From an uncultured Bacillales bacterium (GTDB lineage: Bacteria > Bacillota_I > Bacilli_A > RF39 > UBA660): 64,000 bases of DNA. The position numbers and the translations under genes were made by a program. Below the pieces are notes generated by a model. It saw only the letters and a list, made by a program, of their open reading frames with translations, did not search any database and was not told the DNA's origin. This document shows positions 54,524 to 64,000 of this stretch, in pieces. Within the stretch, counting starts at the first letter, position 1; each line of letters starts with the position of its first letter. The stretch is from NCBI GenBank assembly GCA_946539445.1, contig CAMNHK010000001.1, positions 9,845 through 73,844 of the forward strand, written 5' to 3'.

Positions 54524-54552
54524 TGATTTCATACTTTTTTAATGTTACAATC
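54524..54552 (+). promoter_or_regulatory. sigma-A-type promoter (TTGATT-17-TACAAT)
   Basis: Hexamers with 17-nt spacing, about 70 nt upstream of the first TasA-like gene. TTGTAC...GTACAA inverted motifs lie just downstream. Confidence 0.45.
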
Positions 54553-54619
54553 TTATTGTACATAGTAGGAAAGGTGGCATTGCGCGTACAACAAATATAT
54601 AGAAACAATGGGTGATTGA

Positions 54620-55321
54620 ATGAAAAATGAAGTAGAGGTAAAGGCCCAAACAATTTACAAAAGAGAATTGACTAAAAAATTTGTAAAGGTATTATTTTTA
54701 CTTTTGTTGATTTTGGTGTCAGTTATCTATTTGGTTTTATATGTTGTTTATCAAGGCGGAAAGTTTACTGTTACTTTGGACAAAAACTTATCCAATCGAA
54801 AAAATGTCTTTTTATCGGAAACTGGTAAGTTTTCTGGAAAGACTCGAGAGTTGAAAACTGAGACGATTCATTATATGGATAATATCTCTATCAATTGGAT
54901 ACCAGAAAATATTGATCAAGAAAAAACGGGATCACATAATGGCGACAATTATATCGCTTATACATTCTATGTGGTGAATGCCGGTAAAGAAAAAGTTCAT
55001 TATTGGTATGAAATTGATATTGATGATAGTATTTTGAATGTTGATGAGGCAATTCGTATTATGATTATTCGAAATGGTGAAAGAGTTGTCTATGCTAAAA
55101 AAAGTATTGTAGATGGAGAGCCTGAGAAAGGTACGACAAAATTTGTTTCAGATACTGTTGCAGTACTGGAACAAAGAAAAGATTTCAAACCGAATTCTAA
55201 AGACCGCTATACCGTGGTAATTTGGATTGAAGGGGATGACCCAGAGTGCAAAAATGATCTCTTGGGCGGTGAAATTAAATTGCACATGGATTTTACTGAG
55301 GAACATATTGATAAGAAATAG
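54620..55321 (+). CDS. membrane-anchored TasA/camelysin-like protein, paralog 1
   Basis: N-terminal signal anchor. C-terminal IWIEGDDPEC...LGGEIKLHMDF block is shared with the next gene (MWIEGQDVDCEDH...LAFSLQFSIN). Beta-rich composition. Confidence 0.5.
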   Translation: MKNEVEVKAQTIYKRELTKKFVKVLFLLLLILVSVIYLVLYVVYQGGKFTVTLDKNLSNRKNVFLSETGKFSGKTRELKTETIHYMDNISINWIPENIDQEKTGSHNGDNYIAYTFYVVNAGKEKVHYWYEIDIDDSILNVDEAIRIMIIRNGERVVYAKKSIVDGEPEKGTTKFVSDTVAVLEQRKDFKPNSKDRYTVVIWIEGDDPECKNDLLGGEIKLHMDFTEEHIDKK

Positions 55322-55338
55322 AAGAAGGAGTTTTAAGT

Positions 55339-60413: not shown

Positions 60414-60430
60414 AATGGAGGTGAAGACAG

Positions 60431-63400
60431 TGAAGAATATTACTATGAATCGTAAACAAGCATTCATTCTTTTTACTGTCTTTTTCTTTGTTTTGACAGT
60501 GATTTTCTCTTTCTTTTTACTTACTGGAAGAATTACTTTTGGTTCTTTGGAAGATGGATGGGATGGAGAGACAATTGCTCAATCTTTTAGTGGAGGAAAT
60601 GGTAGCGAGGAAAACCCATATATTATTAGTACTCCAGAAGAATTTTTATACTTTAAGTCTGTTATTGAAGGCGATGAATCCGTAGGATATCAAGATCGTT
60701 ACTATGTACTTGCGAACGATTTAAATTTTAATCAATTTGAGTTTTCTAGTATTGGAATTATTACTTCCGAAGAAGAAAAAATTTTCCGTGGACATTTGAA
60801 TGGTGCGGGACATACGTTACGCAACATTGTGATTCATAAAACTAATACGGCAGGAGATGTCTCTTATTATGGATTATTCTCTAAGACGATTGACGCGAGT
60901 GTTGAAAATTTAATGATTGATACTATGACTATTGAACCAGAAGAGACAGATCAAAAGGTTGTTGTAGGAAGTCTTGTAGGATATAGTACAAGTTCTAATG
61001 ATGAAGATAGTAATGCTATCTATAAAAATATTTCTATTTATAATTTTCATTTAGATCTTCAAAGAACTAATAATGAAGAAAATGAAGTAAATGCTTTTTT
61101 AGGAAATGTTACTTCTAGCCGAGAAATTCGTACGATTCTTTTGAGTGGTACGATTATTCCAAATGGAAACAAGCCAGTTTCTATTGTTGGTGGAGATGTG
61201 TCTATGTCTTCTATTGTAGATGATATTTCTTATAGCGGAGAACTTGCTGGCACTGAATCTATTGAAAATTATTATGTTATTTATGAAGGCGTAATTTATT
61301 TGAATGGTGAAGCTGTATCAGATGAATCTGTTTTAGCTTTCTTTAATGAAACTCTTGGAAATAATTTATATTGGACTCGTGAAAATGGACAATTCTTCCT
61401 TCGTGAGTATGCTCCGGCTCCTGTTGTAGAGACGCCTACTACCGAGAAAAGTTTTACCTTCTCTATGCGAAGTGCACCAAGTTTTGCTCTTCATGATTCC
61501 GGTACAGAGGGACAAACGGTTTATATTAATGATCTTACTGCTGATTATGATTATTATATGGCACTAAATTATGTTACTCCTAATGGAACTGATACACCAA
61601 CGGTAGAGAATAAAGGAATTTATTCTGATAGTAATTTAATTCGTTTTCAAATTATTTATCATGGTAAATTAGATGAGAACCATGAAGGAAAAATCTCTTA
61701 TGAAGCCGCTGATAACTTTAATGAGATGGTTTACTACAAGTATTATTATGCTAGTGGTAGTACGATTGATATTGAATTAATTGATAACCCATTTGCTGGA
61801 AGACCTCACGATATGGCTTTTAATGGTTGGGTATGTACAGATTCTAATGTTACTCTTTACTTGGATGATGATTTATATACATGGCATGCTGTTGTACCGG
61901 TTACAGGTAATACAATTGTATTGGAATTATATGCTTCTTGGGTAGAAGCTGATATGGCGAGAACTTCTGATAACAATAGTAATATAAATACTGCGCTAAG
62001 AACTTTACCGGATGTAGGTTTGGAAGCAGTTAATCTTACGGAAACTAGAGAAAGATATGTTGATCATCTTAATTCTGATTATAATTATTATTATCGAGTT
62101 ATTTTGAATCAAGGTGATTCACGTGTTGGCTATTATAATGTTACTGGTGGAGCTTTAAACGGAACTTGTACGAACGCTACTTGTACTGTTTATGAACTTT
62201 TACATGCTGGAGATCCTTATGATCCGGATGCTACTTATTATTACTTTTATTATGGTAATATTCGTGAATATAATGGTGATCCACGGGCGACGGAAACCTA
62301 TCAAGCTGTTCGATCTATCTACGAAAACATGAATATGGGTGGATTTTATGTTCAAAAGGTTTTACGAAATGGTGAAAGCCGTGAAGGTTGTCGAGACGCT
62401 GTTGGAAATGCTTTAACTGGTAATTGTACAGGACCTATTTGTACGGTATATGCTAGACTCCCTTTTTATAATGATTCAAATGAGGAAAATATTGCTGATG
62501 CCAATACAACTTATTATTATTATGTTACGCGTGATACTAATATTGTTTATTTAAATTCTTATAGTAATACGGCTGGTAATAATCGTTGGACTACTAATAG
62601 GCCATTTACTTTAACTAGTTATTATAATGGTGTAGATTCACGTTCTTCTGCTTATTTTAATATAAGAAATACCTATATGATGGCTCTAACTGATACACGT
62701 GTTGAGTATATTACGGTTCGTTCTGGTGAATATGGATATACGGATCTTTCCAGTAGTCCAAATGGTAATCCGTCAGATACTAATTCTGCCGATTATATAT
62801 ATGGAAACAATAAAAACTTCAAGATAGGTAGAGGGCTTCGGTCTTATAGTAATGGTTATAAAATAGCTGCTGGTGTAACAGGTTCTAATAATAATCGTGT
62901 AACTGCACCAAGATATAAGCTTATTATAGAATCAGGAAATTACAATTTTATTCCTGTTTTATCCTATAGAAGAAGTGCAGCCACTACATCTAATCCAGAT
63001 GTTTCAGCAACTTATGGTTGTGATTATGATCGTGTTCGTAATAATAATAATAATCTTCAAGTATCTACCACAATTTTAGGTAGTTATTATACAAATGTTA
63101 CTTGCAGTGATCACAGTCATGTTGGAGTTCATCATTTGTTAAAGAGTGGAACGATTGGTACGACTGGAATGGCTAGTGGTTCTGGAAACTATGGTATTTA
63201 TTTGAGTAGTACTTATTCTACTTTAGTTCATTGTTCTATGGAATTAATCATGGAGGGTGGAAGAATCTTTAATATTTATGGTGGACCTGGTCCTAATGCT
63301 GATATGCAAAATTATAATGCTATTCATATTTATCAAAAAGGTGGAGTAAGTGATGCTGTTTTTGGTGGAGGAGCTTATTTAACAAGTAATGGTAATCGTA

Positions 63401-64000
63401 TTGTAGCTATAACAGGAGGTAAGGTTAATAATGCTGTTGCGGCTGGATCCAATGGATATGCTGGTGATAATTATAATCGTTTAGGTATTTTGAACGGTGA
63501 TACTTATATGTATGTAGGAGGTAGTGCTGAAATAGGAGATACTTCTCTTGCAGATGAAGATCGTTTATATAATTTGGAAACTGGTTCTGTTTTTGGTACA
63601 GCAAATGGTAATGAACAATATGATGAAGTTGGTTCTTCGGATAATTCTTATGTGGTAATTAATGGTGGAACGATTCATGGTAATGTCTATGGTGGAGGAA
63701 ACTATGGAGCGGTTGCTTTATCTTTGGATAGTGGAACTCATGAAACGAAGATGAATATTGTAAGTGGAACGATTGAAGGATCTGTTTATGGTGGCGGAAA
63801 CAACAATGGTGCTGGAACAACTGGTGCGACGGTAAATACTACGATAGATGTTAATGGAGGAACGATTCAGGGATCTGTCTATGGTGGTAGTCGTGCAAAA
63901 GGTATTATTTATGGTTCTTCTACAGTTACTATTAATGGCGGAACGATTTCTAAGGATGTTTATGGTGGCGGTGAAGGAGGTTACACCAATAATAATAAAC
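60431..64000 (+). CDS. very large secreted parallel-beta-helix-type surface protein (5-prime partial; runs off the window)
   Basis: GGAGGTG RBS before GTG 60431. Signal anchor. GNGSEENPYIISTPEEFLYF....YYVLANDLNF entry motif typical of beta-helix/GLUG-like proteins. Numerous G.(V/I)YGGG repeats near the end. No stop before 64000. Confidence 0.55.

Follow-up and report, generated by a model that had tools for sequence, protein, structure and literature searches.

The window analysed here is a stretch of 64,000 nucleotides (nt) from contig CAMNHK010000001.1 (assembly GCA_946539445.1), which carries between 54.6 and 64.0 kb on the plus strand an array of genes that probably belongs to a signal-peptidase-dependent surface fibre system. 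A preliminary description of this DNA had pointed to a co-directional array 3′ of a tRNA-Leu gene, and seven plus-strand open reading frames (ORFs), hereafter P1 to P7, are indeed located there. The array is laid out as follows (lengths in amino acids, aa).

53792–53878: tRNA-Leu(CAA) gene, 5′ of the array
54620–55321, plus strand: P1, 233 aa
55339–56343, plus strand: P2, 334 aa
56357–56392, plus strand: terminator/attenuator-like hairpin after P2
56401–56535, plus strand: P3, 44 aa
56528–58153, plus strand: P4, 541 aa
58214–59110, plus strand: P5, 298 aa
59181–60413, plus strand: P6, 410 aa
60430 to beyond 64000, plus strand: P7, 1,190 codons in the window, 2,699 aa when complete

These ORFs can be regarded as genes rather than chance reading frames because relatives number 3,277 for P1, at least 3,603 for P2, and 195 for P4, and because the gene order is kept in other genomes. 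The relatives of these three proteins carry no Pfam domain and are named at most “hypothetical protein.” The same genes are called in four metagenome contigs that are 99 to 100% identical to the window, and P7 is 2,699 aa long there. The gaps between the genes are short (17 nt between P1 and P2, 16 nt between P6 and P7), and P3 and P4 overlap by 8 nt (56528–56535), the start codon of P4 being located within P3, which suggests translational coupling. The chromosomal locus as a whole extends over roughly 30 kb, of which the window, and with it the preliminary description, covers the 5′ part (the first third) only; the complete machine is larger and more unusual. Two loci from the same genome (L085 and L087, with 99 to 100% identity to that of the window) were used to read beyond the window end.

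No other protein of the locus is as conserved as P1, which shows 45 to 89% identity across species; the top 120 of its relatives are 73 to 100% identical to it. Hydropathy, on which the transmembrane (TM) and signal calls for P1 to P7 are based, points to a single N-terminal TM helix (aa 16–49) without an A-x-A-type cleavage site. A conserved motif, Y-x-GG-(K/R)-FT-V-x-LD, follows directly after this helix, and the protein ends in a module (WIEGDDPEC-NDLLGGEIK) that is common to P2. We propose that P1 stays uncleaved and anchored in the membrane, where it would serve P2 as a base or partner.

P2, in turn, starts with a signal peptide (aa 1–35; 55339–55443) of the SipW-cognate type that had been read from the sequence before and that now scores 20.4 bits against TIGR04088 (cut-off 19 bits). 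Cleavage is predicted between A35 and W36 (TSTYA|WFTAN), with an invariant tryptophan (W36) at P1′ and a phenylalanine at P2′, and the mature N-terminus shows an alternating hydrophobic pattern (TVTVNTIDVNV). Conserved motifs of the protein are IWEPN.D.H and RVYMWIEGQDVDCEN. An AlphaFold2 model built from 99 diverse relatives (predicted local distance difference test, pLDDT, 91.9; predicted template modelling score, pTM, 0.84) has a β-sandwich following the signal helix. When this model was searched with Foldseek, the archaeal thread subunit 7pnb came out on top (E 5.9e-3, probability 0.54) and nothing was found at E ≤ 1e-3. Thread and TasA subunits came back at the top of two independent structure searches. 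The modelled fold is compatible with the superfamily of TasA and thread donor-strand subunits, which does not by itself demonstrate membership. In a set of 5.8 billion proteins, the relatives of P2 fall into 2,027 clusters at 50% identity. None was found in phage and plasmid collections, for which reason a weak tail-fibre match (AfpX13, E 0.022) was dismissed.

The C-terminal WIEG.D..C block that P1 and P2 had been said to share is found by BLASTP over the last 28 residues only (E 2e-4) and by hhalign with diverse alignments over 38 C-terminal columns (84.8% probability, E 6.6e-6), with nothing elsewhere. The shared module consists of a strand, an acidic loop, and a strand, W-I-E-G-x-D-x-x-C ... 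G-G/S-x-I/L. It is presumably because of this module that the two families fuse in iterated jackhmmer searches. Several residues within IWEPN.D.H and WIEGxDxxC are invariant or nearly so, namely E213, H219, E306, D309, and C312 in P2 as well as E204, D207, and C210 in P1. This cluster of acidic residues, histidine, and cysteine could be a metal site (Ca2+ or Zn2+) or the site of a covalent cross-link between subunits.

The gene for P6, 2.8 kb downstream of P2, encodes an ER/archaeal (SipW-type) signal peptidase I with intact serine and histidine boxes, as judged from its sequence. It scores 53 bits against TIGR02228 (ER/archaeal signal peptidase I; cut-off 51.85 bits) and aligns with human SEC11C (7p2q) over the Ser and His boxes. 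The catalytic domain (aa ~14–128) contains a TGSM Ser box, an ITHRL His box, and the sequence TKGDVNN, of which TGSM, ITHRL, and TKGD are conserved in the family. TM helices lie on either side of it (aa 6–34 and 122–159), from which it follows that the fused C-terminal domain of ~250 aa (59658–60410) is probably cytoplasmic. This fusion, which the preliminary description had noted together with the two boxes, is kept in 47 to 48 of the 80 loci retrieved for synteny, and family lengths are ~400 to 420 aa.

P7 is a giant surface protein with an N-terminal TM helix or signal anchor (aa 8–40) and no other TM helix. After this helix a conserved cap motif (WDG..VA.SF..GNG...NPY.I) is followed by a variable stretch of ~900 aa (30 to 39% identity), and the C-terminal third (~800 aa), which lies past the window end, is the best conserved part (50 to 68%). 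From aa ~950 to 1800 (starting at ~63277) the protein contains 20% Gly and repeats of 24 to 26 residues (V[YF]GGGN...T.V.V.GGTI.GN). The autocorrelation of these repeats is 0.155 versus a shuffle maximum of 0.132 ± 0.005; most of them are located beyond the window, and the in-window portion on its own has no significant periodicity. P7 had been introduced as a giant β-helix protein. Its size and surface location hold, but P7 and four homologs gave no match in Pfam, NCBIfam, or the PDB, β-helix families included; the repeats are compatible with a β-solenoid.

Between P2 and the peptidase gene lie three shorter genes and the hairpin. The latter is a 10-bp GC-rich stem-loop, AAAAGCCTTC-CTTATC-GAAGGCTTTT, with a T-rich tail, and is found immediately 3′ of the P2 stop codon. 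A hairpin with a T-run is present after P2 in most loci of the same gene order as the window, with differing stem sequences, and the median minimum free energy of the 70 nt past the stop codon is −14.6 kcal/mol for P2, versus −2.9 for P1 and −8.7 for P4. Terminator/attenuator-like hairpins are common 3′ of genes for major subunits. A hairpin at this place is what one would expect if a major subunit is made in abundance and read-through supplies the machinery genes. P3 is acidic and has no hydrophobic segment; jackhmmer finds it in 51 loci. P4 likewise lacks a hydrophobic segment, in line with the cytoplasmic location first suggested for it, and its model (pLDDT 92.7) is all-α with long helical hairpins, for which a fold search returned generic bundle matches only, none of them informative. 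P5 does have the signal peptide and C-terminal TM helix that were ascribed to it, but it is not a conserved member of the array: it is present only in the lineage of the window and in one further locus (L005, 49% identity), and in most other loci P4 is directly followed by P6. A role as core anchor was thus rejected on account of its presence in two loci only, and P5 is an accessory gene, specific to the lineage, in a slot whose content varies.

In the same genome, P7 is followed by D1, D2 (208 aa), D3 (203 aa), X1 (~311 aa), X2 (350 aa, cytoplasmic), and X3. D1 (L085:19392–20015, 207 aa) starts ~4.6 kb past the window end and resembles SipW along its whole length (E 8.8e-6), both TM helices included; the Ser (SM) and His boxes are missing, and D1 therefore looks like a catalytically dead peptidase paralog. 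X3 is seen in L087 with a TM helix, a coiled-coil-like stretch, and a Walker A motif, where the contig stops. In relatives the order continues as X3, X4, X5, and X6, with Xr on the opposite strand. D2, D3, and X1, as well as X6 and Xr of the relatives, are small secreted proteins in which a hydrophobic N-terminus is followed by an aromatic/Ser-rich motif. In hhalign comparisons, D2 matches Xr (100% probability) and D3 (95%), and the N-terminus of P2 aligns with those of D2, Xr, and X6 (77 to 90%). TIGR04088, however, is not reached by D2, D3, X1, X6, or Xr, nor by P1.

X3 was further characterized in a related locus (L048), where it is McrB-like (PDB 6hz4, E 1.6e-4; NF008457, E 4e-5). Its full-length homologs have N-terminal TM segments, a coiled coil, and an almost invariant AAA+ core, with 59 to 76% identity across species. 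X4 of the same locus contains DUF2357, the N-terminal domain of McrC (PF09823, E 6e-13, 49 bits; cut-off 23.3 bits), and is found behind X3 in 20 loci. No nuclease Pfam match was detected in X4, and no conserved D...(D/E)xK motif in its poorly conserved C-terminal half, which is a weak test made on the sequence only. X5 is an intact SipW-type peptidase (TIGR02228, 75 bits). Against the SipW equivalog NF046067 (cut-off 190 bits), X5 reaches 71.2, P6 47.6, and D1 25.4 bits; these three proteins are of the same enzyme type as SipW and are not SipW orthologs.

The relatives also differ in how these genes are arranged. In addition to the order of the window (P1-P2-P3-P4-P6-P7-D1-D2-D3-X1-X2-X3...), a rotated type (P7-D1-D2-D3-X1..X6-Xr-P1-P2-P4-P6) and a compact type (P1-P2-peptidase-X3-X4-...-X5) were observed. 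In the compact loci L056, L064, L074, and L082, the gene that takes the place of D1 retains GSM or THR boxes. Furthermore, in L067 (8725–9867, 381 aa) and L080 (8711–9808, 366 aa), an intact SipW-type peptidase is in-frame with a D3-like secreted subunit, which puts an enzyme and its putative substrate on one polypeptide.

Searches against Pfam, NCBIfam, and the PDB sequences covered all seven window proteins, D1 to D3, the D1 to D3, X1 to X6, and Xr proteins of L048, and the four P7 homologs; beyond the peptidase, signal-peptide, McrB (X3), and DUF2357 (X4) matches, none was informative. No mutual relation was found by hhalign among P3, P4, P5, the C-terminal domain of P6, X2, X3, X4, and a 173-aa protein encoded upstream of P1. 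Between 53.6 and 64 kb, the tRNA was the sole RNA element found with Rfam, without any riboswitch, and a promoter scan gave a result no better than shuffled sequence.

When one genome per species was scanned, at least 561 loci were found, which puts the locus in no fewer than 561 species-representative genomes of uncultured Bacilli from gut and rumen. A three-sequence alignment of D3 gave a usable pattern for scanning metagenomes. Among the 80 loci retrieved, the genomes mostly go by the labels Bacilli, Bacillales, Erysipelotrichaceae, Mollicutes, Mycoplasmatota, Clostridium sp. CAG:524, and Ca. Faecenecus, with a few others, and one cluster member is named Mycoplasma sp. CAG:877. That the gene set would co-occur in other genomes proved right for the 80 species-level loci retrieved for synteny, most of which keep the order P1-P2-(P3)-P4-P6-P7. 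P1 is present in 77 of them and stands immediately 5′ of P2 in at least 69; a SipW-type peptidase gene is found in 67, P4 in 63, P3 in 50, and the C-terminal domain of the peptidase in 47.

A class of systems to which this locus may be assigned has already been named. Bell et al. (2024, eLife, PMC11090510) defined CoCoPALM as a clade of McrB GTPases that are fused to an FtsB-like TM helix and a coiled coil, and in one sentence, with the description deferred, linked these McrB/McrC homologs to signal-peptidase “pilus assembly factors.” Likewise, X3 is an McrB-type nucleoside triphosphatase (NTPase) with an N-terminal TM helix and a coiled coil, the DUF2357 protein X4 is its partner 3′ of it (as seen in relatives), and the signal-peptidase-family genes P6, X5, and D1 occur in the same loci. 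X3/X4 together with P6, X5, and D1 fit that description, with an ambiguous reading of the NxD signature: X3 has VNNDDS where E. coli McrB has MNTADRS, and NNDD can be read as NxD or NxxD. The P1/P2 family, P3, P4, the peptidase fusion, the 2,699-aa P7, and D2/D3/X1, on the other hand, are not described in PMC11090510. A full-text search of our literature library for the name CoCoPALM returned, besides unrelated uses, only this paper and its preprint. The system had been taken to be undescribed, which is correct as far as a detailed description goes, but the class itself has a name.

Three better-known systems are comparable. In the B. subtilis tapA-sipW-tasA operon, a dedicated ER-type signal peptidase is likewise combined with a SipW-cognate substrate that has an aromatic residue at P2′, a β-sandwich subunit, and a membrane-proximal partner (TapA, of which P1 is the proposed counterpart). 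PMC10269814 reports that cleavage of TasA by E. coli LepB is inefficient because of the Phe at P2′, and that SipW cleaves TasA in B. subtilis; the mature TasA N-terminus at residue 28 was checked against 8aur. The sipW-bsaA-bsaB-bsaC operon of C. perfringens also encodes SipW and several related secreted subunits, and in the model for it the signal peptide tethers the subunits until SipW cuts and the export of oligomers needs an energy-dependent helper, type IV pilus proteins (PMC11580942). That helper is a separate type IV pilus system, whereas here an NTPase is encoded within the locus; furthermore, BsaA is detectably related to TasA and has an N-E-K isopeptide triad, in contrast to the conserved E/H/E/D/C set of P2. 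Finally, the taf cluster for Tat-fimbriae in Haloarcula encodes the signal peptidase I TafD beside major, tip, and adaptor subunits and an anchor (PMC11821415). These fimbriae and the archaeal threads, bundling pili, and cannulae resemble the locus in having a signal peptidase I next to the subunits and a predicted or shown donor-strand assembly, and the thread subunit 7pnb is the best Foldseek match of P2. They differ in being archaeal, in using Tat or Sec export, and in their DUF1102 or DUF5305 partners, and the passages of PMC11821415 report no NTPase, giant adhesin, or cytoplasmic partners.

Taken together, we consider it fairly probable that the locus encodes a signal-peptidase-I-dependent, fibre- or pilus-like surface system, probably of the donor-strand type, with its own NTPase. 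The core of the earlier proposal, a locus with a dedicated signal peptidase, a substrate of the cognate type, and a giant surface protein, stands. The following mechanism may be envisaged. The subunits would be exported by Sec and remain tethered through the N-terminal signal anchor until cleavage, which in P2 would take place at A35|W36 by the action of P6 or X5. The strand released in this way (TVTVNTIDVNV) would then enter the next subunit, the kind of donor-strand exchange known from TasA, BsaA, and archaeal threads. P2 would form the shaft and the uncleaved P1 its membrane base, with D2, D3, and X1 as minor, adaptor, or tip subunits and P7 as a giant adhesin that is held via its conserved C-terminal third. 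A ring of X3/X4, acting with P3, P4, X2, and the part of P6 that extends into the cytoplasm, may link NTP hydrolysis with processing, assembly, or movement across the wall.

Several points weigh against this interpretation. The homology between P1 and P2 spans the 38 C-terminal columns only; the two had been called paralogs, which holds for these columns and is not shown for the rest of their length. No protein of the locus is linked to TasA/Peptidase_M73 at the sequence level. The roles of the individual subunits, the cleavage by P6, the donor-strand exchange, and the part played by the NTPase are inferred from analogy and synteny. X4 to X6 are known from relatives, as the contig of the window’s own genome ends at the Walker A motif of X3, and no cultured carrier was found among the 80 loci, all of which come from metagenome-assembled genomes.

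A bolder version of this interpretation is that the locus represents a new class of filament machine in single-membrane gut Bacilli. Here, β-sandwich subunits of the unclassified P1/P2 family, matured by signal peptidase I, would be assembled or extruded as directed by a membrane-anchored AAA+ ring of the McrB type with a nuclease-less McrC plug, an NTPase recruited from restriction enzymes, and P3, P4, X2, and the peptidase tail would form an inner platform. It would be the first energy-coupled pathway for fibres that are neither of the type IV kind nor sortase-dependent and that do without a chaperone. We put this forward tentatively, as an idea that is more doubtful than the fibre system as such.

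It is rather unlikely that the locus specifies a non-filamentous envelope system, in which P1 and P2 would form an S-layer-like lattice or act as lectin-type adhesins, P7 would be an adhesin, the peptidases would be maturases, and the cytoplasmic proteins would be regulators. D2, D3, X1, X6, and Xr with their pilin-like N-termini resemble the sets of major and minor subunits of fibres, and the high placement of thread and TasA subunits in both structure searches speaks for fibres as well.

Still less likely, and disfavoured, is an ortholog or simple variant of tapA-sipW-tasA, B. cereus calY, or C. perfringens sipW-bsaABC, in which P1 and P2 would be members of the TasA/camelysin family that self-assemble in the extracellular space with no additional machinery. 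P1 and P2 had been labelled “TasA/camelysin-like,” but neither matches PF12389 (Peptidase_M73) at E ≤ 1, nor do D2, D3, and 30 members of the D2/Xr family match it. TasA was not found when the profiles of P2 and of the D2/Xr family were compared with all PDB sequences, and hhalign against a verified TasA sequence gave probabilities of 0.3% for P2, 1.8% for D2, and 0.1% for D3. The label denotes a functional analogy. The score of P6 far below the SipW equivalog cut-off points in the same direction, and P3, P4, the C-terminal domain of P6, P7, D1, X2, and X3/X4 do not figure in the accounts of the operons in Bacillus and C. perfringens. Since the full locus adds a dead peptidase, further subunits, and an McrB-like NTPase (plus, in relatives, an McrC-like partner and a second peptidase), the machine is unlike tapA-sipW-tasA.

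The McrBC-type module could also suggest an anti-phage or anti-plasmid defence island, with X3/X4 as a CoCoNuT relative and the secreted proteins as sensors or effectors. X3 is McrB-like, X4 has the McrC N-terminal domain, and the CoCoPALM clade adjoins the defence CoCoNuTs in the McrB tree (PMC11090510). Yet X4 is devoid of a conserved PD-(D/E)xK motif and of nuclease matches, X3 is membrane-anchored, and secreted structural proteins take up more than half of the coding capacity. Defence islands are generally patchy and fast-evolving, whereas this locus is syntenic and strongly conserved (P1 and X3 across species, as given above) and P2 is missing from the phage and plasmid collections. This explanation has very little probability. 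The least probable of all is a spore-surface appendage or coat-fibre system made during sporulation, an idea suggested by a sigma-factor gene and spoVAC/AD/AEB 3.7 kb upstream of the array, and for which the first description of TasA as spore-associated can also be cited; this adjacency, its sole support within the genome, is lineage-specific, with the locus standing in other contexts in other carriers, and sporulation would not be expected in some of the carriers, namely genomes labelled Mycoplasma sp. CAG:877, Mollicutes, and Mycoplasmatota.

The surroundings of the array provide some additional observations. Right behind the tRNA-Leu gene, an 8-bp GC hairpin with a T-run (53889–53908, plus strand) resembles a terminator and divides the scpA/scpB-tRNA unit from the array 3′ of it. 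The 173-aa protein mentioned above is encoded between the tRNA and P1 (53976–54497, plus strand) and has neither a Pfam nor an NCBIfam match; it shows a C...H-like pattern (CFYCAEF) and is found at the same position in 13 close loci (40 to 71% identity) and not in more distant ones. It probably lies outside the core of the system. Further upstream, between the spoVA genes and scpA, a 343-aa ORF (51330–52361, plus strand) encodes a Tyr/Cys-rich protein with an N-terminal TM helix and no Pfam match. Between spoVAEB and this ORF, a gene for a 100-aa RNHCP-domain protein (~50941–51243, minus strand, by offset from L002:5603–5905) is called in the sister contigs L002, L003, and L086 and not in L001 and L085, which is either a strain-level or a gene-calling difference. 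The sigma-70-family gene and spoVAC/AD/AEB occupy 48472–50911; they are preceded by a YkuD (L,D-transpeptidase) protein with SH3 domains (47088–48374, plus strand, by offset from L001) and by a surface protein of 1,314 aa that matches MucBP weakly (ending at ~46992, plus strand, also by offset from L001). From the YkuD protein and the spoVA genes it can be concluded that the organism has a cell wall and sporulation genes.

In the library searched, the CoCoPALM class is named but not described further, and the best-supported reading of the present locus is that of a variant of signal-peptidase-I-dependent fibre systems. The locus thus gives content to a label that otherwise exists in that literature as a name only. 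Given its presence in at least 561 genomes, together with large protein families (2,027 clusters for P2) that have no Pfam domain or informative name, it may encode a major unrecognized surface organelle, which would be relevant to adhesion, aggregation, and host contact in common gut bacteria. Because the locus ties subunits and peptidases to an NTPase and to cytoplasmic partners, it would also offer a handle on the assembly and anchoring of TasA-type and archaeal donor-strand fibres and on their way through the wall of single-membrane cells. If true, it would be a clear case of an McrBC restriction motor reused outside defence.

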